The translations under genes and the position numbers were made by a program. From positions 1 to 64,000 of the IMG/VR virus record IMGVR_UViG_3300028920_000026: a stretch of DNA of 64,000 bases; one strand, written 5' to 3'. Below are positions 411-53,248 of the stretch, one piece after another (position 1 is the stretch's first letter; each line of letters starts with the position of its first letter). The DNA comes from a virus. The notes under the pieces are model-generated. The model saw only the letters and a list, made by a program, of their open reading frames with translations, made no database searches and had not been told where the DNA came from.

Positions 411-1370
411 ATGTTAGGACTCTGTTGTCACTACCTTGTTCCTGGACGGAAGCCAGGCACGTACGTAAACCAGCTGCGTATGCGCCAGCTGCAGCTCGGC
501 AGGTTCAGGTGTGGTGATTACAGCGAAGACTTCATCCGCAATGCGTGGTACGAAAACCTAGCAACGCTCGTCGAACACCTTCCCGCCGTCTTTAAACGCT
601 ACAAGGTCTATAGGTTTCCGTCTGGCATCCTGCCCATGTGGGACCAGGTACCCGAACGCTTGTGGCGTGACGATGCCACAGTGCAATCCCAGTTTGCCGT
701 CATCGGCAGGCTCGTCGTTGTAAACGGTGTTCGTGCCACATTCCACCCAGGTCAGTTCTGCTCGCTGTCGAGCGACAACTGGAGCGTGCGTGAGGCATCG
801 GTCCGTGAACTAAATCACCATGCGTGGCAGTTCGACCAGATGATGTTGCCCGTCAGCCCGTACCACGCCATCAACGTTCACGGCGGCAAGCGCGGCTTCA
901 GCGACGTGCTAATTGCCAGCATCAACGATACTACGAGCACGTCTCCTTACGGTCCACTGTCCAGCTCTGCACGTGAACGTCTTACGTTCGAAAACGACGA
1001 ATGTAGCTACAGCACTGTCGACCTGCTTCGCATCTACAGGCATACAGGCGTACCCGTTGTCTTCGACTCTCACCATCATACGTTTAATACGGGTGGCATC
1101 AGCATGGTACTTGCGTCCAATGCAGCCAAGGAAACGTGGCGTGACGTCAAACCCCTGCAACACCTATCAAACTCTGATCCTGAACTTGCTTCTGACGCAC
1201 GCTTTCAGGCGCGGCGCGCACACAGTGAATTCATTCATCACATCCCAGAGTGCCAATTACATGATGTGCAAAATGACACAATAGATCTGGACGTAGAGGC
1301 AAAATGTAAAAACCTAGCAATAGACAAGATGCGTAAGGATTTTCAAATTCATGACGTATCTTTGCACTGA
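411..1370 (+). CDS. uvdE: UV DNA damage endonuclease, UvdE/UvsE family
   Basis: 319-aa ORF. Colinear UvdE blocks 'YRFPSGILP', 'VRATFHPGQF', 'AINVHGG', 'ERLTFENDECSYS', 'VPVVFDSHHH' match B. subtilis UvsE 'YRFSSSIVP', 'LRTSFHPNQF', 'INIHIGG', 'ERMTLENDDKTYT', 'VPFVFDFHHF'. Confidence 0.85.
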   Translation: MLGLCCHYLVPGRKPGTYVNQLRMRQLQLGRFRCGDYSEDFIRNAWYENLATLVEHLPAVFKRYKVYRFPSGILPMWDQVPERLWRDDATVQSQFAVIGRLVVVNGVRATFHPGQFCSLSSDNWSVREASVRELNHHAWQFDQMMLPVSPYHAINVHGGKRGFSDVLIASINDTTSTSPYGPLSSSARERLTFENDECSYSTVDLLRIYRHTGVPVVFDSHHHTFNTGGISMVLASNAAKETWRDVKPLQHLSNSDPELASDARFQARRAHSEFIHHIPECQLHDVQNDTIDLDVEAKCKNLAIDKMRKDFQIHDVSLH

Positions 1371-1564
1371 AATTGTTGCAGGTAAGCAAGCGAATCGTCC
1401 AAAATGAATTGTTGTGATAAGTGTGATTGCGAATTTACTCGTCGATACGTACGAAAATTTATGTGTGAACAACACTTGTGTTCAAACGAATGTAACTGTT
1501 GATGAGATTGAACCATACCAATCATTGCTTGAGGGATTACATAGCAATGCTTATGTAACTACCT

Positions 1565-1894
1565 GTGTTAAAAGCGCAAGGTAAGGAAACCGAACAGAAA
1601 ATGCGGCAGCTACCTATTATCGAAATGGCTACGAGTGAAGTTTCAGAGTCTGTGCCCTCGACCGTCTTCGAACAGACGGGATACCAGATCTTCTATCGGT
1701 ATCAACCGAGTATCTTCTTTTCAAACGTTCGTGACTTTACGGCAAAGAAGCTCCACGCATACGCTGACTCTACGTCGAATCCAGTCACACGCCTGAACAG
1801 GTACGCCCTCCTGAAGGATTATCTCGACGGCAACGTCGCGGTGTGTTGGTGCAACGGCGAACCAAAGTTCCAGCGACTCGAACGCGCAGCTTGA
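1565..1894 (+). CDS. hypothetical protein
   Basis: 109-aa ORF directly upstream of groEL; no recognisable motif and not GroES-like. Confidence 0.3.
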   Translation: MLKAQGKETEQKMRQLPIIEMATSEVSESVPSTVFEQTGYQIFYRYQPSIFFSNVRDFTAKKLHAYADSTSNPVTRLNRYALLKDYLDGNVAVCWCNGEPKFQRLERAA

Positions 1895-1925
1895 CCAACG
1901 AACGCGGAAGGAGTAAGATCCTTCC

Positions 1926-3524
1926 ATGGACGTTGAGAACGAACACACAAGCACGAACATCCTGTTTCGAGACGACGCAAAGGACGCACTCTTAAAGGGT
2001 GCGTCGACCGTCGCAGAAGCCGTCGGATGTACGATGGGTCCTCGTGGGAGGACGGTGCTGATCCAACAGGAGGGGAAGGCACCGATCCTGACGAAGGACG
2101 GCGTCACAGTCAGCAAGGCCGTCAGGCTCAAGGACCCGATCGCGCGCATGGGTGGTGACCTGCTCCGCGATGCAGCCAGCAGGACGAACGAGGTCGCTGG
2201 CGACGGAACGACCACAGCAACGGTCATCTCATACGCGTTGATGCGTGAAGGACACAAGCTTCTGTCCGCTGGGCACAACCCGCTCGAGCTGGTGAGGGAC
2301 CTCGAGCTCGCGAAGAACGCGGCGACGATGATGCTAAAGACTGCGGCACATCCAGTCAAGGATACCGACACGCTCCGCACCGTCGCCACGATCTCGGCGA
2401 ACGGCGATGAGGCGATCGGAGGCTTCATCGCCGATGCCCTCAACAAGGTCGGCAGGGATGGGATCGTCACCGTCGAGGACGCCAAGGGGACGACGACCTC
2501 GCTTGACGTGGTCGAGGGCACGCAGTTCGAGCGTGGCTACCTCAGCCCCTACTTCGTGACAAACAACGACAAGATGGTCGCCATCTATGATGGATGCGAC
2601 GTCCTCGTGACAGACAGACGGTTGGGTTCAATCACCGAGCTCATCCCTGTCCTCGAGAACTGCAGGTCAGGAAGGCCCCTGCTAATCATTGCTGATGATG
2701 TGGAACCAGAGGCGCTACAGGCGCTCGTCCTAAACAGGGTAAAGAACCGCCTCCGCGTGGTGGCGGTCAAGGCACCTGGCATCGGTCAGGCGAAGGGACA
2801 CATGTTGGACGACATCGCGACGCTCGTCGGCGGAACCGTCGTATCAGCAAAGAGAGGAATCGAGCTCAAAGATGCAGTTGCCCACCTAGGCCACACGAGA
2901 AAAGCCATTGTGAACGCCAAGGCTACCACCTTGGTGGGCACAGAAAAAACGAGTGAGGCCCTCGTGGGCCGGATTAAGGAGCTCAGGTCACAGCTGGAGG
3001 ACCCAACCCTTGATTCGGACGAGGAGGCGATCCTGAAGCTCCGGCTCGCGAGGTTGACGGGTTCTGTTGCTGTTATCAAGGTGGGCGGTGCCACTGAGCT
3101 CGAAATCTCCGAACGAAGGTATAGAATCGAGGACGCACTTAACGCGACGCGCGCGGCGGTGGAGGAGGGCTTCGTCCCGGGAGGCGGGATCGCGCTGTAC
3201 AACGTCGTCCAGGAACTAGGACAGGTCACCGACGGATCGACGCAGCTGATGATCGCAGGATGCCTTGAGCCACTCCGCCGCATCGCAGAAAACGCAGGCA
3301 TGAGCTTTGATGTCGTATCTCACCTCATATCGTCCACCCGGAGCGGTATACTGGATGCAGAGATCGGTATAGACGACTACGGGTGGGACGCTCGGAAGAA
3401 GGAAGTCAGGAAGTTCACTGATATCATCGATCCGGTCAAGGTCACGAGGACGGCGCTTGAGAACGCAGTTTCCGTAGCGATCGCATTTCTGTCGCTTGGG
3501 GCGGCTGTTTACGAGGAAGAATGA
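1926..3524 (+). CDS. groEL: GroEL/Hsp60-type chaperonin (no C-terminal GGM tail)
   Basis: 532-aa ORF with canonical GroEL blocks 'DGTTTATV', 'AVKAPGFG'-like 'AVKAPGIGQAK', 'VAVIKVGGATE', 'EEGFVPGGG'. It ends ...VYEEE with no Gly-Gly-Met repeats. Its stop overlaps the next start (ATGA). Confidence 0.95.
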   Translation: MDVENEHTSTNILFRDDAKDALLKGASTVAEAVGCTMGPRGRTVLIQQEGKAPILTKDGVTVSKAVRLKDPIARMGGDLLRDAASRTNEVAGDGTTTATVISYALMREGHKLLSAGHNPLELVRDLELAKNAATMMLKTAAHPVKDTDTLRTVATISANGDEAIGGFIADALNKVGRDGIVTVEDAKGTTTSLDVVEGTQFERGYLSPYFVTNNDKMVAIYDGCDVLVTDRRLGSITELIPVLENCRSGRPLLIIADDVEPEALQALVLNRVKNRLRVVAVKAPGIGQAKGHMLDDIATLVGGTVVSAKRGIELKDAVAHLGHTRKAIVNAKATTLVGTEKTSEALVGRIKELRSQLEDPTLDSDEEAILKLRLARLTGSVAVIKVGGATELEISERRYRIEDALNATRAAVEEGFVPGGGIALYNVVQELGQVTDGSTQLMIAGCLEPLRRIAENAGMSFDVVSHLISSTRSGILDAEIGIDDYGWDARKKEVRKFTDIIDPVKVTRTALENAVSVAIAFLSLGAAVYEEE

Positions 3525-34645: not shown

Positions 34646-35256
34646 AAAAAACAATAATGATACTACCAATCATGCTCTTGCTCGTTGGCTGTGCCGGCGA
34701 CAAGGAACGTGCGCCGAACATATCAACCTTGTACGAAACGGGTGGAACACCATCGTATGTTGGTTCTACAGGAGGTGCCGCGGGTCTTCCAATATCCCTT
34801 GAGGGTGGTACCGCAGGCACGGGCGAGTTATTTGGAGGAACTTCAGGTGTTGGCGCTGAGCCCTCTAAAGGCGGCGTCGGTGTGGCGGGCGGGGTTTCCA
34901 TGGGCGGTTCAACAGGTGGAAACGAAACTGGTGGCGTTCAGGATACCGGAGGCGCACCCCCGGGTGGTGTGGTGGTAACCCCTGGTGGCGCATCGGGAGG
35001 CCCTCCTGGGGGCTTTGGTGGGCTCGAGGACGGTTCAGGAGGTATAGGTGGTGCTGGTGGAGAACCGGTCGAGTGCCCGGTGGGCGGTGCTGGTGGGGTT
35101 GTAGTTGAAGTTGACGGAAGCTACAACTGCAATTCTAAATCTCCGGACTCTGATCTGGACGAGTGCTGGGACGCTGTGTACCCATGCCTGCACGAGGGAG
35201 AATGGTTCGAAAAGGGTGATGGTTCGGGATTCTGGACGTATTGCGTGTGTGCCTAA
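34642..35256 (+). CDS. glycine-rich lipoprotein with C-terminal Cys-rich domain
   Basis: 204 aa; signal + lipobox 'LLLVGC'; ~120 aa of G/T/S/P-rich repeats; C-terminus 'ECPVGG...CNSKSPDSDLDECWDAVYPCLHEGEW...YCVCA'. Confidence 0.6.
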   Translation: MKKTIMILPIMLLLVGCAGDKERAPNISTLYETGGTPSYVGSTGGAAGLPISLEGGTAGTGELFGGTSGVGAEPSKGGVGVAGGVSMGGSTGGNETGGVQDTGGAPPGGVVVTPGGASGGPPGGFGGLEDGSGGIGGAGGEPVECPVGGAGGVVVEVDGSYNCNSKSPDSDLDECWDAVYPCLHEGEWFEKGDGSGFWTYCVCA

Positions 35257-35457
35257 CAATCCAGGAAGGTATACTAAGACCATGGCACGCTACGACGATG
35301 GAACGAACAAGATCAATTGACAGAGACTATTTGTCGAATTTTCACCGCGGGTTCAGGATTAACACTCGGGTGTTTATGTCTATCGAAAAATTCAATGTTG
35401 AAACGCTACGGACCGCTGCGAAAATGATCGACGCCTTCGCAGAAATAAAGATAATCA

Positions 35458-46748: not shown

Positions 46749-46782
46749 GTGCCCTAGCCTTCGGGTTGAGGTATACTGACTC

Positions 46783-47530: not shown

Positions 47531-47595
47531 AGGCCCTCTCGGGTCTCTCTCGAGACCTTTCTTGGGTCCTAGGTAGGATTCCATACGTACGCCTC
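47531..47595 (+). repeat. ~65-nt intergenic repeat containing TAGGTAGGATTCCATACGTACG (copy 1)
   Basis: Shares 'ccctctcggg' and an exact 22-mer with 51281..51345. Confidence 0.45.
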
Positions 47596-47662: not shown

Positions 47663-47848
47663 GCAACCAACGTACAGAAGGCGCAGAAGCTCAGTGAGCT
47701 CGCAGAGGTCATCGCAAAGAATCGTCCATCCGAAAAACAGATTCGAGAGGCGTGCAGAAGCATCGCTCGCCAGTTTGGCGTTAGGGTGAAGGACGTCCGC
47801 GGGTTGGTGGACGCAGCGGTTGCGCTGTACAACGGAAGGATCCAATGA
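47660..47848 (+). CDS. small protein, founder of a 3-member paralog set (ACR..A..G..V.DV.GLVD motif)
   Basis: 62 aa; '...EKQIREACRSIARQFGVRVKDVRGLVDAAVALY'; canonical 'GGATATACTAAGATCATGGCAAC'. Confidence 0.5.
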   Translation: MATNVQKAQKLSELAEVIAKNRPSEKQIREACRSIARQFGVRVKDVRGLVDAAVALYNGRIQ

Positions 47849-48123: not shown

Positions 48124-48179
48124 TCGATCGTCGCACGTCGACACACGACGGCACGCAAGGGTTGGTGTGTTTCCGGTTC

Positions 48180-48204
48180 AATCATGGTAGACTAAAACCA
48201 TCAA
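48180..48204 (+). repeat. conserved 25-mer AATCATGGTAGAYTARAACCATCAA (copy 1 of 2)
   Basis: Identical except for 2 nt to 49029..49053; each lies ~40-60 nt upstream of a gene start in the cassette array. Confidence 0.45.
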
Positions 48205-48231
48205 CTGGGTGTGACGGACACATCCCTTGAG

Positions 48232-48948: not shown

Positions 48949-49028
48949 GGTCCCTACCGAGATTCATTCAGTCGAACTCAGGATTTGATCGATCAACGAC
49001 ACACTACAGGCCAGTGCCGCGGCAGCCT

Positions 49029-49053
49029 AATCATGGTAGATTAGAACCATCAA
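49029..49053 (+). repeat. conserved 25-mer AATCATGGTAGAYTARAACCATCAA (copy 2 of 2)
   Basis: See 48180..48204. Confidence 0.45.
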
Positions 49054-49055
49054 AG

Positions 49056-49074
49056 GGGAGCGGCGGACGCTCCC
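49056..49074 (+). terminator. hairpin gggagcg-gcgga-cgctccc
   Basis: Precedes the ATG of 49091. Confidence 0.35.
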
Positions 49075-49090
49075 TTGGAAGGCAACCACG

Positions 49091-49354
49091 ATGGATCAAG
49101 ATGTACGAAAGAGACTTCACGAGATTTACCGTAACCTCGACGAGCTCCTCACCGAGCTCAAAGACACCATGCGGTCGGAGCCCGACCTTCAACCCTACTA
49201 CGAACCTGCCAGGGCGTACTGGCTGGCATCGTTGGATGTCGGTCTGAATGCAGCCGAGTATGTCACCTTCAACCCGACTTTCTCCGGTATGCTCGAGGAC
49301 CTCGGCATCATGGACTACGACGGTGAGTTCATCGAGTGCGAAGAGGAATGCTGA
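49091..49354 (+). CDS. hypothetical small acidic protein
   Basis: 87 aa; preceded by the hairpin 49056..49074. Confidence 0.45.
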   Translation: MDQDVRKRLHEIYRNLDELLTELKDTMRSEPDLQPYYEPARAYWLASLDVGLNAAEYVTFNPTFSGMLEDLGIMDYDGEFIECEEEC

Positions 49355-49628: not shown

Positions 49629-49648
49629 TGACACGGGAAACCCCGTGT
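49629..49648 (+). terminator. hairpin preceding a start motif
   Basis: 'gacacggg-aaac-cccgtgtc'. Confidence 0.45.
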
Positions 49649-49665
49649 CGGTCCCCACCTTCGAA

Positions 49666-49682
49666 GGTATACTGAGACCATG
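49666..49682 (+). promoter_or_regulatory. GGTATACT-N6-ATG start motif
   Basis: 'ggtatactgagaccATG'. Confidence 0.5.
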
Positions 49683-49994
49683 GAAAAACGCAAGCCAAGC
49701 GAGTTCGCGCTAGGAGACATCGTCAAGATGACGTCTTACGATGGCAAGGGTTTCTGCGGACGGGATCCTCACCCGAAACCCTACGATGTTGGCAAGGAGT
49801 ATCTAATCCTCAAGGTGAAGTACAACGATGGAAGCGACTTCGTGCCCATGGAAGGCGAAACGCAGGAAGACCTCGCCTTCACAGTCATGGACTGCCAGTG
49901 CCTCGATGGTACAGAGCGCAAGGTACAGCTCGTTGATCACGAGGTGGAGCTGGTCTCAGATCTACTCAGGGGCTTCTTCTTTGAGTGTGAGTGA
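49680..49994 (+). CDS. hypothetical small protein
   Basis: 104 aa; hairpin + 'aaGGTATACTGAGACCATGG'. Confidence 0.5.
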   Translation: MEKRKPSEFALGDIVKMTSYDGKGFCGRDPHPKPYDVGKEYLILKVKYNDGSDFVPMEGETQEDLAFTVMDCQCLDGTERKVQLVDHEVELVSDLLRGFFFECE

Positions 49995-50095: not shown

Positions 50096-50153
50096 ATTCC
50101 TTCACCGTTTCCCCGAGGGCTGTAGCCGTCTCGTGTTGTATACGGCCTGCGAG

Positions 50154-50170
50154 GGTATACTAAGACCATC
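50154..50170 (+). promoter_or_regulatory. GGTATACT-N6 motif with start codon mutated to ATC, followed by a ~65-nt leader
   Basis: 'gggtatactaagaccATC'; the real ATG is 67 nt downstream, after a second 'ggtataaagaatcATGG'. Confidence 0.45.
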
Positions 50171-50234
50171 GGACAGGAACGGCGCGGGAAGCGTCGGCGG
50201 ATGAAACTCAACCCACACGAAGGTATAAAGAATC
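50171..50234 (+). repeat. duplicated 5' leader (copy 1) between the ATC-mutated motif and the real ATG
   Basis: 'ggacaggaacggcgcgg.aag...ggcg..ATGaa.c.caacccacacgaaggtataaagaa.c' is ~90% identical to 52593..52658. Confidence 0.45.
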
Positions 50235-50567
50235 ATGGCAAACGGCACACACAAGGCAATGTTCCTCTCACTCGCCAGCCTCCTCACCGGCAGCATCTTG
50301 ATGTTCTGCGCGGTCTATTCTGGAACGCATCACTCTCCCGTATCGGTCCCGACGTACGAGGACACGGTCACCCAACCTGTTCCAGTCGAGGTCACCCCCG
50401 ACGTCACCGAGGTCGAGACGGTCACCATCTCGGTTAAGGCACCTCCAAAGCGTGGCAGTGTCATGAAGCTCGGCGAGAGCCGCAAGGTCACGGGTCGGTG
50501 CTGGAAACAGGCCCTCGAGCAAGGCGGCAGTCCAGACGCCCCGAACGTCATCGTCTGCGACCTCTGA
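50235..50567 (+). CDS. secreted/membrane-anchored small protein (paralog of 52659..52985)
   Basis: 110 aa; N-terminal hydrophobic 'AMFLSLASLLTGSILMFCAVYSG'; C-terminus '...GRCWKQALEQGGSPDAPNVIVCDL' parallels the paralog '...KRCFEHVMAQQGRPRARSVIVCE'. Confidence 0.55.
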   Translation: MANGTHKAMFLSLASLLTGSILMFCAVYSGTHHSPVSVPTYEDTVTQPVPVEVTPDVTEVETVTISVKAPPKRGSVMKLGESRKVTGRCWKQALEQGGSPDAPNVIVCDL

Positions 50568-50579
50568 ACACAACCACAC

Positions 50580-50601
50580 GGGACCGGCACGTGCCGGTCC
50601 C
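50580..50601 (+). terminator. perfect 22-nt palindromic hairpin GGGACCGGCACGTGCCGGTCCC
   Basis: Directly after the stop of 50235..50567 and 10 nt before the TATACT motif. Near-identical copies occur at 52030..52057 and 52334..52355. Confidence 0.5.
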
Positions 50602-50611
50602 TCTCCCTCGG

Positions 50612-50628
50612 GATATACTGAGACCATG
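50612..50628 (+). promoter_or_regulatory. GGTATACT-N6-ATG start motif
   Basis: 'ggatatactgagaccATG'. Confidence 0.5.
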
Positions 50629-51183
50629 GAAACGGCAACCATGATGACCCCACAGCCTACCCTTGAGGCCGTCCTTGCGGCTCTCAACACGCAGCGTGGC
50701 CTGGAACGTGGCATCACCCTGATCGCCAAGCGACAGACGCCCGATGAACGGATCGAGTTCACCACGAAGTACGACAACGATCGGGGCTTCGAGGCATGGG
50801 CGGCACGCAAGGGGACCCGCATCGCAAACGCCGTCCTTGATGATGGCGCCCGCCTGACTCCTGGGTCATCATGGTGGGCCTTCGCACAGAAGGTGCTCCG
50901 TCGCAACAAATACCAGCTTCTGGAAGAGGCATGGAAGAAGTGGTGGCAAAAGAACTCTGCGCTCGTCACCCCCGGCACGGGCATCGAGCTGGCACACGGG
51001 TTCACCCTATCGGACGGGTCAAAGGTGCGGCACAACCACATGCTCCTCTTCATGGCCTTCGAGCCCGATCCTGAGGGTCACCACGAGGGACACATCGTCT
51101 TCCTCAACAAGGACGGCGTGCCCAAACGGGAGCATCCCAGCTACCTCTTCCGGCGCGTCAAACAGATCCTGATACCTGCATAG
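50626..51183 (+). CDS. hypothetical protein
   Basis: 185 aa; begins 'METATMM' from the same 'ATGGAAACGGCAACC' start as 51681; palindromic hairpin + 'GGATATACTGAGACCATGG'. Confidence 0.5.
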   Translation: METATMMTPQPTLEAVLAALNTQRGLERGITLIAKRQTPDERIEFTTKYDNDRGFEAWAARKGTRIANAVLDDGARLTPGSSWWAFAQKVLRRNKYQLLEEAWKKWWQKNSALVTPGTGIELAHGFTLSDGSKVRHNHMLLFMAFEPDPEGHHEGHIVFLNKDGVPKREHPSYLFRRVKQILIPA

Positions 51184-51280
51184 GGCTGGCTGGTAACGAT
51201 CGTCGATCGCCCGCTCGTCACGCGAGCAAAATGAAAAAGCTGGTACACGGTGGCTGCCGTTAAAATTTGACCATTCACGA

Positions 51281-51345
51281 GCCCTCTCGGGACCCTCTCA
51301 AGGGCCTTGGAAGGGCTTAGGTAGGATTCCATACGTACGTCAAAG
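51281..51345 (+). repeat. ~65-nt intergenic repeat containing TAGGTAGGATTCCATACGTACG (copy 2)
   Basis: See 47531..47595. Confidence 0.45.
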
Positions 51346-51362
51346 GACCCTTGCGGGGGTCC
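51345..51362 (+). terminator. hairpin ggaccc-ttgcg-ggggtcc
   Basis: Precedes the RBS and ATG of 51374. Confidence 0.35.
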
Positions 51363-51373
51363 GGGGGAGAAAG

Positions 51374-51607
51374 ATGAAAGACAGCGAACGACGGCTATTG
51401 AACGTGATCAACGTCCACGGGCACTCACCTAGGCGCGTGCGCAAGGCGTGTCGAAATGTAGCCCGCCGCCTCGGGATCGACAAGCAGTACGTCCAAGACG
51501 TTGTCGCGAGGGTCTTTGTAGCGTACTCACTCGACGGCACCGTGCTGCACCTCACGTACTGTGGTGCGGTACAAGGAATGCCGAGTTGTTTTTGGAGATC
51601 GTCCTGA
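51374..51607 (+). CDS. small protein, paralog of 47660..47848
   Basis: 77 aa; 'VRKACRNVARRLGIDKQYVQDVVARVF'; uses an SD-type start 'ggagaaagATG' after the hairpin 51345..51362. Confidence 0.45.
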   Translation: MKDSERRLLNVINVHGHSPRRVRKACRNVARRLGIDKQYVQDVVARVFVAYSLDGTVLHLTYCGAVQGMPSCFWRSS

Positions 51608-51666
51608 TGACCCCTTCGCACCAAGTTAAGGAAGCGAACAGCGTGGTGCGCTAACCACCACGAAGG

Positions 51667-51683
51667 GGTATACTAAGACCATG
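51667..51683 (+). promoter_or_regulatory. GGTATACT-N6-ATG start motif
   Basis: 'gggtatactaagaccATG'. Confidence 0.5.
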
Positions 51684-51965
51684 GAAACGGCAACCACCAA
51701 GTCAACCAAGCTCCGGAAAATCTACCTGCGCGGTCCCAAGGGCGACACCAAGAAGGTGCTCGTGCTCCTGGCCGGTGTCCTCTACGAGGCCGAATACACG
51801 GTGTCCTGCTACGAAGACCTCGGTGGTGACAAGTGTGAGGTCCTTGATGTCACTGATACCTACATCCACGTACGCCTTGGCACCGGCGTGGAAAACATCT
51901 TCACCCGGCAAGCGCTGGCCGCCGCACCCGCCCAGCTCGAGCTACCCTTCGCGGTCGCGGCCTAA
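51681..51965 (+). CDS. hypothetical small protein
   Basis: 94 aa; 'GGGGTATACTAAGACCATGGAAACGGCAACC'. Confidence 0.5.
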   Translation: METATTKSTKLRKIYLRGPKGDTKKVLVLLAGVLYEAEYTVSCYEDLGGDKCEVLDVTDTYIHVRLGTGVENIFTRQALAAAPAQLELPFAVAA

Positions 51966-52029
51966 CAACACCCGCAACAGTGTGCCCCGACTGAAGTCGG
52001 GGCACACTACTGGGACCATGGACCTCTGA

Positions 52030-52057
52030 GAATGGACCGGCACGTGCCGGTCCATTC
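52030..52057 (+). terminator. palindromic hairpin gaatGGACCGGCACGTGCCGGTCCattc
   Basis: Copy of the 50580 palindrome with an extended stem; precedes the TATACT motif of 52079. Confidence 0.5.
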
Positions 52058-52064
52058 CCTCAAG

Positions 52065-52081
52065 GGTATACTAAGACCATG
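52065..52081 (+). promoter_or_regulatory. GGTATACT-N6-ATG start motif
   Basis: 'gggtatactaagaccATG'. Confidence 0.5.
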
Positions 52082-52318
52082 GAAGCAACCAAACAAGCGG
52101 TAAAAGGAATCACTCGAGCAATCAAGTCACAGGTCGAAAGAATGGATGATTTCTTTAGAGATTGTTTGGACCTGTATGACGTTGATGATGCCAGCGTTCT
52201 GGAAATCAATCCGGAAGAGTTCTCCAAGATGGTCATTGATGCTGTCACCGAGGAACTCAACGGAGATCTGAGTGAGGTCTTCAAGGATTGGATGGAGCGC
52301 TATCAGGAAGATATCTAA
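52079..52318 (+). CDS. hypothetical small acidic protein
   Basis: 79 aa; palindromic hairpin + 'aGGGTATACTAAGACCATGG'. Confidence 0.5.
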   Translation: MEATKQAVKGITRAIKSQVERMDDFFRDCLDLYDVDDASVLEINPEEFSKMVIDAVTEELNGDLSEVFKDWMERYQEDI

Positions 52319-52333
52319 ACCAGAGGACCACAC

Positions 52334-52355
52334 GGGACCGGCATGTGCCGGTCCC
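52334..52355 (+). terminator. palindromic hairpin GGGACCGGCATGTGCCGGTCCC
   Basis: Third copy (one central substitution), directly after the stop of 52079..52318. Confidence 0.5.
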
Positions 52356-52575
52356 TCTCCTGGCTTTGAGAGAGTGAAAGGAAGAAGGACAGTTCGGGTT
52401 TTTCTTCAACACCAACGGAAACTGTGACGTGATCACTCTTTCAGACCATTGATGACGTTGACGAACTGGAGTCTGTGGGTACACCACTAATATTCCTCCC
52501 TCATTTTCACTCCTCTAATCCTAGTTGGTGGGGGAGAAATCCCCCACCTTCACCGTGTCCCCTACTTTTCAAGGG

Positions 52576-52592
52576 GATATACTAAGACCATC
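52576..52592 (+). promoter_or_regulatory. GGTATACT-N6 motif with ATC, followed by the duplicated leader
   Basis: 'ggatatactaagaccATC'; second copy of the 50154 arrangement. Confidence 0.45.
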
Positions 52593-52658
52593 GGACAGGA
52601 ACGGCGCGGAAGGCTCCGGCGCTGATGAAGACCAACCCACACGAAGGTATAAAGAACC
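52593..52658 (+). repeat. duplicated 5' leader (copy 2)
   Basis: See 50171..50234. Confidence 0.45.
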
Positions 52659-52985
52659 ATGGCAACCAACGGAATCAACAAGGTCCTTTCAATCGTAGTC
52701 CTCTTCGCCGGCGCAGCAGCCCTGGCACTCTCACTCGGGTTCATCAACAACAGCAACGCTCAAGAAGTCGACACAGACGCGCTGTATCCGACACGGGATG
52801 AGGTCACACGCCCTGTCCCCAAGGGTGAGGTCACCATCACATCCATCACTGTCACTGAGCACCCCAAAAAGGTGCCTGCCACACGGAAGGCGTCCTACAC
52901 GAAACCGGTCCAAAAGCGCTGCTTCGAGCACGTCATGGCCCAGCAGGGTCGTCCCAGAGCTCGCAGCGTCATCGTCTGTGAGTGA
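52659..52985 (+). CDS. secreted small protein (paralog of 50235..50567)
   Basis: 108 aa; signal-like 'VLSIVVLFAGAAALALSLGFINNSNAQE'; shares the duplicated ~70-nt leader with its paralog. Confidence 0.55.
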   Translation: MATNGINKVLSIVVLFAGAAALALSLGFINNSNAQEVDTDALYPTRDEVTRPVPKGEVTITSITVTEHPKKVPATRKASYTKPVQKRCFEHVMAQQGRPRARSVIVCE

Positions 52986-53035: not shown

Positions 53036-53212
53036 GGAAACAATCACAGCAAGATCTACACGGTCTTCTGATGCCGAAAGGATCGGCGCACGCTGTATAC
53101 GGCACGCCCAAAGGGGGCCCCACTACTCGTCGAGAGGATCCTCGATGCATGATGGGGCCCCCTTTTTACGTCGAGGAGAGCACACAGAGGGCCCCCTTGA
53201 GAGCCCCCTATG
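53033..53212 (+). CDS. hypothetical small basic protein (59 aa)
   Basis: hairpin + 'CATACTAAGACCATGG'; its 3' end runs into the CCCCCTTGAGAG repeats. Confidence 0.35.
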
Positions 53213-53248
53213 AAGCCCCCTTGAGAGCCCCCTCTTGGGGCCCCCTTG
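53188..53248. repeat. tandem array of ~5 x 12-nt CCCCCTTGAGAG-like units (GGGCCCCC-rich)
   Basis: 'gcccccttgagag ccccctatgaag cccccttgagag ccccctcttggg gcccccttgcat'; two more GGGGCCCC palindromes lie upstream at ~53114 and ~53154; sits at the plus-to-minus strand-switch. Confidence 0.5.

Follow-up and report, generated by a model that had tools for sequence, protein, structure and literature searches.

Two paralogous small genes of a probable jumbo phage lie behind tandem copies of an array promoter module, the first copy reading ATC in place of ATG

Results

Two paralogous cassettes in an array of small genes

The DNA analysed here (the window) comprises positions 1 to 64,000 of the IMG/VR virus record IMGVR_UViG_3300028920_000026. 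Between 35 and 53 kb its plus strand is an array of small genes, each with its own promoter module, and our subject is two cassettes of that array, A and B, in which the promoter box is followed by ATC instead of ATG, then by a short leader and only then by a protein-coding gene (Table 1). The box of A reads GGTATACTAAGACC and then ATC (50154-50171), that of B GATATACTAAGACC and then ATC (52576-52593). A first-pass annotation of this sequence had drawn attention to the ATC, which is present in both cassettes as described; its spelling of box B, GGTATACT, should read GATATACTAAGACC. The same annotation had called the cassettes paralogous, and the two proteins, of 110 and 108 residues, are indeed 35% identical (E 3e-9).

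The array module is approximately 38 nucleotides (nt) long and consists of GTG, exactly 20 nt, a TAnnnT hexamer, four bases, CC and finally AT(G/C); TC replaces the CC in two promoters (46986 and 47625). The box GGTATACTAAGACCATGG has 14 matches at up to 3 mismatches, all on the plus strand between 35.2 and 53.0 kb, where 0.02 would be expected by chance, while a scan for canonical sigma-70 -35/-10 promoters found nothing. Altogether the array holds 19 modules with ATG and 4 with ATC. Open reading frames (ORFs) of 49 to 185 codons are opened by 17 of the 19 ATG modules, the other two opening only 12 and 29 codons. Among the 27 unique modules found in 77 kb of five related IMG/VR phage contigs, every one has ATG and none ATC, and IMG/VR contains no instance of the exact box with ATC after it. 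Since the A of the ATG sits where the distance from the -10 box predicts transcription to start, the array mRNAs would be leaderless.

GC-rich hairpins (-16 to -23.5 kcal/mol) lie before the modules or overlap them, and the hairpin upstream of A is partly homologous to the one upstream of B. A 20-nt palindrome, GGACCGGCA(C/T)GTGCCGGTCC, occurs in three copies on the plus strand (50581, 52034 and 52335), and in two of them the GTG at the centre also serves the next promoter as its upstream element. The plus-strand stretches 50612-50641 and 51667-51696 have in common the promoter and the first 16 nt of the coding sequence (CDS; ATGGAAACGGCAACCA, giving METAT). The proteins concerned, of 185 and 94 residues, have no detectable mutual similarity, so that promoter cassettes reach into the transcribed region. 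At the head of the plus-strand block, a perfect consensus module (35247-35320, plus strand) drives a leaderless ORF of 12 codons (MARYDDGTNKIN, then a stop codon), after which more than 100 nt follow without an obvious gene; this ORF is a candidate leaderless leader peptide. The end of the array is marked by a 12-nt unit, GAGAGCCCCCTT, in approximately 4-5 tandem copies (53176-53248, plus strand).

Table 1. Features of cassettes A and B, of the two further ATC modules and of other parts of the window
Feature	Start	End	Strand	Details
GC-rich hairpin upstream of A (GTGGGGG...CCCCAC)	50056	50092	+	RNA fold -23.5 kcal/mol; presumed terminator of preceding gene
First module (P1) of A	50133	50170	+	GTG 50133-50135, N20, TATACT 50156-50161, AAGACC, ATC at +1 50168-50170; geometry as in the 19 ATG modules
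Leader A	50168	50234	+	67 nt; 20-nt block identical to B 50168-50187; hairpin CGGCGC-GGGAA-GCGTCG 50180-50196; out-of-frame ATG 50201-50203 at GTG position of second module (P2); SD-like GAAGG 50219-50223; degenerate box TATAAA 50224-50229 and 5-nt spacer GAATC
CDS A	50235	50567	+	110 aa; hydrophobic 9-27, P/T/V/E-rich linker, C-terminal Cys89...Cys108 loop
Perfect palindrome GGACCGGCACGTGCCGGTCC after A	50581	50600	+	-20.9 kcal/mol; central GTG is next promoter's upstream element
Hairpin GGTGGGGG-AGAAAT-CCCCCACC upstream of B	52527	52548	+	-20.0 kcal/mol
First module (P1) of B	52555	52592	+	GTG, N20, TATACT 52578-52583, AAGACC, ATC 52590-52592
Leader B	52590	52658	+	69 nt; identical 20-nt block; hairpin 52602-52624; out-of-frame ATG 52625-52627; GAAGG 52643-52647; TATAAA 52648-52653 and GAACC
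CDS B	52659	52985	+	108 aa; hydrophobic 9-27, possible signal-peptidase site SNA|QE after residue 34, Cys88...Cys107
Hairpin after B	53002	53021	+	-16.1 kcal/mol; overlaps next promoter's -10 box
Third ATC module	48165	48225	+	TAGACT-AAAACC-ATC (ATC 48200); module 48165-48202, hairpin 48207-48225
Fourth ATC module	49014	49093	+	TAGATT-AGAACC-ATC (ATC 49049); module 49014-49051, hairpin 49056-49074
UvdE UV-damage endonuclease	411	1370
GroEL-like chaperonin	1926	3524
tRNA-Met	10432	10506	-
tRNA-Arg(CCT)	16157	16230	-

The leader consists of two array modules in tandem

Neither cassette is a standard leaderless fusion of promoter and gene. The upstream module, P1, has the right hexamer and spacing but reads ATC, whereas the downstream one, P2, has ATG but the hexamer TATAAA and a 5-nt spacer. 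The 3' block of the leader, CAACCCACACGAAGG-TATAAA-GAAyC-ATGGCAA, aligns with promoters of the array such as those at 51646-51684 and 49645-49683 (Smith-Waterman score 18 versus 10.2 +/- 1.5 for the shuffled null), and the distance from the leader ATG to TATAAA, exactly 20 nt, is that from the GTG to the hexamer in the module. The small hairpin of the leader occupies the usual site of the hairpin preceding a module. At the other end, the first 20 nt are similar to the purine-rich sequences with which other array genes begin and behave like an initial transcribed sequence common to unrelated array genes; conservation there is not peculiar to A and B. The leader is two promoter modules of the array in tandem, P1 intact except for the ATC and P2 degraded in all three elements, and cassettes A and B are built from the array module though they are not standard members of the array. 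The second degenerate box noted in the first-pass annotation is present in both copies (GGTATAAAGAAyCATGG); the leader itself had been taken for an inserted element, a view that does not hold, given that its 3' half is a degenerate copy of the array's own promoter/start module.

Over an alignment of 70 positions the two leaders are identical at 61 (87%, close to the approximately 90% reported previously). By comparison, the codon-aligned CDSs of A and B have 47% nt identity, and their third positions agree at 38% where 33.5% is expected from composition; synonymous sites are near saturation. At the rate seen in the CDSs, the probability of 61 identities in 70 is 3e-12. Because third positions are so near the composition expectation, the duplication of A and B must be old, and the leader has been kept far better than neutral DNA. 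The conservation falls into two perfect blocks, one from TATACT through +20 and one ending in ATGGCAA (34 and approximately 30 nt, respectively), with a diverged core of 13-15 nt and a 2-nt indel between them. Exact scans of IMG/VR found no other copies of the leader. The single match in JGI metagenomes lies inside an MBL-hydrolase-like gene and was discarded as chance, and the 5' half of the leader shows borderline similarity to the sequence that precedes the closest homologue, which is in another phage (score 14; null 8.6 +/- 1.4, with a maximum of 15).

Several other coding possibilities across the leaders were rejected. A start of the main ORF farther upstream is excluded by an in-frame TAA within the TATAAA box (50226-50228 in A), an ORF initiated at the ATC would have 89 codons in A and 11 in B and is not conserved, and minus-strand ORFs of 64 residues across both leaders are alike only where the DNA is conserved.

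Other ATC modules and genes led by a Shine-Dalgarno sequence

A and B had been described as the only leadered exceptions in the array. This is not the case, as there are two further ATC modules (ATC 48200 and ATC 49049) and the genes at 47845, 49091 and 51374 are led by a Shine-Dalgarno (SD) sequence. The ATC 48200 module and the leaderless promoter of gene 48246, which is intact and matches the consensus, form a clear tandem pair at 48165/48211. The ATC 49049 module is followed by the SD GGAAGG (49077-49082), 8 nt before the ATG of an 87-residue gene at 49091, with which the ATC is in frame. All four ATC modules are followed by a hairpin; those after ATC 48200 and ATC 49049 are homologous to each other, with 2 of 7 stem pairs compensatory, while the genes themselves (48246 and 49091) appear unrelated when their translations are judged by eye. 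These two modules also have AATCATGGTAGAyTAraACCATCAA in common, which encodes a 3-codon ORF (MVD, then stop) overlapping the -10 box.

Another pair of paralogues, 47660 and 51374 (37% identity), has a conserved upstream block of approximately 70 nt, followed by an intact leaderless module in one case and an SD in the other. The block contains an exact 22-nt repeat, TAGGTAGGATTCCATACGTACG (22/22; 47570-47591 and 51318-51339, plus strand), and may represent a second class of promoter or operator. By eye, the two proteins are helix-turn-helix-like. Taken together, a series that runs from tandem modules, through a decaying second module (A and B), to a plain SD-led gene is plausible.

Some of these arrangements bear on the possibility that the leader is without a function of its own and is similar in A and B owing to recombination or gene conversion (the shuffling known for promoter-early stem-loop [PeSL] cassettes, PMC2839356) and the ATC module being the orphaned promoter of an upstream gene that has collapsed. 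We think this rather improbable, although a number of observations are in line with it: unrelated genes have promoter cassettes in common, down to the first 16 nt of the CDS; homologous ATC modules precede the apparently unrelated genes 48246 and 49091; and the approximately 70-nt block of 47660 and 51374 has an invariant core. In addition, copy A without the C of the ATC would contain a mini-ORF of 11 codons (ATG...TGA), and 'gaTGAaactcaacccacacg' is similar to the stop codon and spacer that follow gene A. However, two short perfect tracts with a diverged core between them look like constraint on two blocks rather than one recent conversion, and the ATC and the same degenerate P2 are kept in both copies, as expected if the arrangement is used.

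An upstream ORF and a structured leader find little support

The first-pass annotation had proposed that the leader was acquired as a post-transcriptional element, either a regulatory short upstream ORF (uORF) or a structured RNA bound by a factor, controlling secreted effectors. Short is not the right word for the uORF. From the ATG at 50201 it extends for 78 codons and from that at 52625 for 58, in both cases crossing the main start in a different frame; compared with codon-shuffled controls, such lengths are ordinary (P 0.18 for A and 0.26 for B). The uORF ATG sits at the -35-like GTG position of the second module and lacks an SD, and outside the conserved DNA the frame is not maintained; similarity of the encoded peptides stops where the DNA similarity stops, and the stop codons of A and B differ in position. 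A regulatory leader peptide would be confined to the leader and have its own initiation signal and a common stop, none of which is found here.

Folding and covariation point the same way. The minimum-free-energy z scores of the two leaders are -0.17 and +0.55, none of 10 consensus pairs is compensatory between A and B, and the leaders match nothing in Rfam at E <= 10, so that neither stability nor covariation nor family membership marks the leader as a structured cis-regulatory RNA; with two copies only, the comparison has low power and the absence of covariation is weak evidence. What favours such an element is the strong conservation of the leader, the upstream AUG in both copies, and a GC hairpin at the same place in both, albeit with different 3' arms; the hairpins after all four ATC modules and the compensatory pairs at 48200/49049 may be added. 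Given that no further copy of the leader was found in IMG/VR or JGI metagenomes either, and that nothing positive supports a uORF or a structured element, we regard control of this kind as highly improbable.

A proposed silencing of the 5' end, with an internal start

On balance, and with moderate confidence, we think that A and B each carry two stacked modules, that the ATC silences a start at the 5' end of the transcript from P1, and that the gene is translated from the internal ATG with the help of GAAGG, a weak SD-like sequence. A and B, which are old paralogues encoding a small protein that is probably exported or membrane-anchored, each lie behind a P1 and a degenerate P2, the latter having presumably changed from GTG to ATG, from TATACT to TATAAA and from a 6-nt to a 5-nt spacer. 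Transcription from P1 would start at the A of the ATC, giving an mRNA with a 5' untranslated region (UTR) of 67 or 69 nt, and the ATC would block ribosomes from starting at the very end of this mRNA. Such a start would be unwanted, because an ATG at the site of the ATC would send ribosomes over the true start in the wrong frame (for 89 codons in A and 11 in B). Initiation would take place at the internal ATG, with GAAGG, part of the promoter consensus (aAGG-TATACT), acting as a weak and long-spaced SD; its distance from the ATG is 10-11 nt, and the putative SD of this phage's GroEL (GGAAGGAG) is similarly spaced, 12 nt upstream of the ATG. The ATG of the uORF and the small hairpin would then be relics, respectively, of the P2 upstream element and of the usual hairpin before a module. 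The leader may be conserved because it is made of promoter/start modules, which across the array are kept or homogenised far better than coding sequence.

That the start embedded in the promoter is disabled, as the first-pass annotation had it, agrees with work in mycobacteria, the only system examined systematically: leaderless initiation there requires ATG or GTG at +1, and ATC was used as a negative control (PMC4633059). By the same rule, the 5' end of the P1 transcript would be translationally silent.

Several points weigh against this proposal. The ATC rule comes from mycobacteria, and the translation rules of this phage's host may differ; the positions of the start sites are those suggested by module geometry; and GAAGG, which lies 10-11 nt before the ATG, is a weak SD. 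IMG/VR and JGI metagenomes yielded no copies of the leader beyond these two, and with two copies purifying selection and gene conversion are inseparable. Moreover, the three full-length homologues of A and B elsewhere are all SD-led, so that the gene may never have been leaderless, and conversion from a leaderless to a leadered gene, as previously suggested, is possible but unproven. Finally, P2, which we take to be inactive, may still fire.

If it does, both promoters could be active, P1 giving a leadered and P2 a leaderless mRNA, corresponding to two expression modes or infection times. P2 retains all three elements at the right distances ((g)ATG-N20-TATAAA-N5-ATG), and 29 of 30 positions are identical between A and B. 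Each of its deviations has a counterpart elsewhere: 5-nt spacers occur before ordinary genes (at 46770, and as TAGTAT-AAACC-ATG three times in the relatives), the hexamers TATAAC and TATAAA, which lack the final T, also precede ordinary genes in the phage family, and the array promoter 45895 carries ATG where other modules have the upstream GTG. The undoubted tandem pair at 48165/48211 is a further argument. Recognition of a -10 element by sigma-70-type factors normally needs the T at -7, though, and P2 departs from consensus in all three elements together, this T included; no other box in the window or its relatives combines these defects. Dual promoter activity is possible, but in our view unlikely.

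The proposal of a silenced P1 start can be extended into a rule, namely that modules not fused to a gene start carry C for G at +3, which disarms spurious translation from the 5' end, and that the genes of A and B are deliberately kept SD-dependent so that their synthesis is uncoupled in timing or level from their approximately 20 leaderless neighbours. C at +3 is found in all four array modules that are not fused to a gene start and in 0 of the 27 modules of the relatives. We doubt that the rule holds in this general form; if it did, one setting for such uncoupling would be a phage or host that shifts the balance between leaderless and SD-led translation during infection.

The proteins encoded by A and B

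Both proteins have the N-terminal hydrophobic segment and the conserved RC(W/F)...VIVC(D/E) tail seen by the first-pass annotation. The 19-residue hydrophobic core has a Kyte-Doolittle value of 2.1 in A and 2.4 in B, is preceded by 8 residues of net charge +1, and is long enough for a membrane anchor; candidate cleavage sites are VYS|G in A and SNA|QE in B. In both proteins a linker with many P, T, V and E residues leads to a C-terminal loop closed by two conserved cysteines. The sequences suggest that the proteins are likely exported or membrane-anchored. The earlier designation as secreted effectors is only heuristic, being drawn from the hydrophobic N-terminus and the cysteine pair. G+C at third codon positions is 0.77 (A) and 0.70 (B), as in neighbouring genes. 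Two AlphaFold2 runs (mean predicted local distance difference test scores of 51.6 and 59.2) gave, at low confidence, only an N-terminal helix (residues 4-30 in A) and a C-terminal hairpin.

Pfam, PHROGs and the PDB contain no match for either protein, and a word-indexed protein search returned nothing beyond the query itself. When 1.84 billion cluster representatives were scanned in full with HMMER, three full-length remote homologues and one weak one (P0008) came to light, which share (K/R)RC(W/F/Y)...LEQ(G/Q)GRPGA..V.VC(D/E). The three full-length homologues lie in small-gene arrays on phage-like contigs, none of which has the leaderless module, and each is SD-led (GGAGGTGA, GGAGGT). The A and B proteins belong to a tiny phage family that is SD-led elsewhere. 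On two phage-like contigs that encode homologues of the cassette protein, L017 (positions 630-3347; Logan SRR17165148) and L020 (SRR6747804), the small genes examined are preceded by a repeated cassette of the contig's own; that of L017, cGGAAATC-N14-GTAT-N6-9-GGTGGAGGTGATACG-ATG, is an SD-led counterpart of the leaderless array.

Genome setting

Part of a metagenomic contig of 331,213 bp (ENA ERZ27252253 k141_1101516) is 99.99% identical to the cassette DNA, and the contig encodes the exact sequence of protein B. The window is best read as part of an uncultured jumbo-phage genome of approximately 331 kb. Two Logan contigs from SRR8554435 are 99.96-99.98% identical to the DNA carrying the cassettes; both terminate within the leader, no more than approximately 25 nt from the main ATG, which would be expected of an assembly interrupted by a repeat. 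Besides the genes in Table 1, the window encodes an AAA ATPase and an ORF of 881 residues resembling major vault protein (17518-20163, minus strand; Pfam MVP_shoulder 1.7e-26, Vault_3 1.5e-10). Megablast of the region against GenBank phages gave no match, and no close relative of the window was found among these phages. Comparison of UvdE and GroEL with GTDB genomes was uninformative about the host. The array module is also present in five IMG/VR contigs, two of them of 324 kb and 278 kb, and one module-bearing relative encodes a homologue (59% identical) of the 185-residue gene between cassettes A and B.

Discussion

All pieces of this arrangement are of known kinds: leaderless genes adjacent to a -10 box, promoter-plus-stem-loop cassettes and tandem promoters. 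What is new is their combination in a jumbo phage and the apparent habit of placing ATC at +1 where a module is not the start of a gene. This is a small and explainable variation, not a new control element or regulatory principle; the features picked out by the first-pass annotation are real, and were over-read as an inserted regulatory leader with a uORF. If our reading is correct, the array would be a natural experiment on leaderless translation, with approximately 20 genes fused to their promoters and four cases silenced by a single base. It would provide in-genome evidence that a 5'-terminal ATG suffices to recruit ribosomes and must be removed when unwanted, and would suggest a route from a leaderless to an SD-led gene that makes use of the AAGG contained in the promoter consensus. 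The gain in practice would be modest and consist in better annotation of gene starts and promoters in uncultured jumbo phages of approximately 280-330 kb. The analysis also defines a small new family of predicted exported phage proteins with the tail signature RCW...LEQGGRPGA..V.VC(D/E).

Leaderless genes with a -10 box 6-7 bp before the start codon are known from Actinobacteria (Shell et al. 2015, PMC4633059) and Deinococcus-Thermus (PMC12340547). The array resembles them in having a TAnnnT-type hexamer 6 nt before an ATG that should serve as transcription start and start codon alike, no SD and no canonical -35 element. In contrast, the phage consensus extends over approximately 38 nt; its GTG always lies exactly 20 nt before the hexamer, and the CCAT at the start is invariant. 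Cassettes A and B are exceptions that read ATC at +1, and the phage start sites are predicted from sequence geometry.

The PeSL cassettes of T4-type phages (Arbiol et al. 2010, PMC2839356; PMC4122927) provide a second parallel. As with PeSLs, repeated composites of a promoter and a GC stem-loop are found on either side of small ORFan genes in a part of the genome that is plastic, the position at which a stem-loop overlaps promoter elements varies, and cassettes are common to unrelated genes, suggesting modular shuffling. The hairpins beside or overlapping the 'GTG...TATACT' modules, together with the threefold palindrome, make the array PeSL-like in composition. The two differ in that PeSLs have a sigma-70 -35/-10 pair and end in an SD and a start codon, whereas the array cassette ends in the start codon itself. 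No exchange events between cassettes could be scored, the only close strains being 99.96-99.99% identical.

Tandem promoters that give alternative 5' ends for one gene are a general arrangement in bacteria and phages. Cassettes A and B conform to it in having two promoter-like modules 67-69 nt apart before one ORF, and depart from it in that the upstream start would be disarmed for translation by the ATC and the downstream promoter is degenerate, promoter activity being predicted. With the jumbo phages phiKZ and AR9 the phage has in common a very large genome in which many early units use a strongly conserved promoter motif (PMC8244752, PMC5312081). The early transcripts of phiKZ have UTRs of 31-40 nt, with no leaderless transcript detected, and the UTRs of AR9 span 26-491 nt (PMC8244752, PMC5312081). 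In the array described here, unlike in those phages, leaderless geometry is the rule and the leader the exception.

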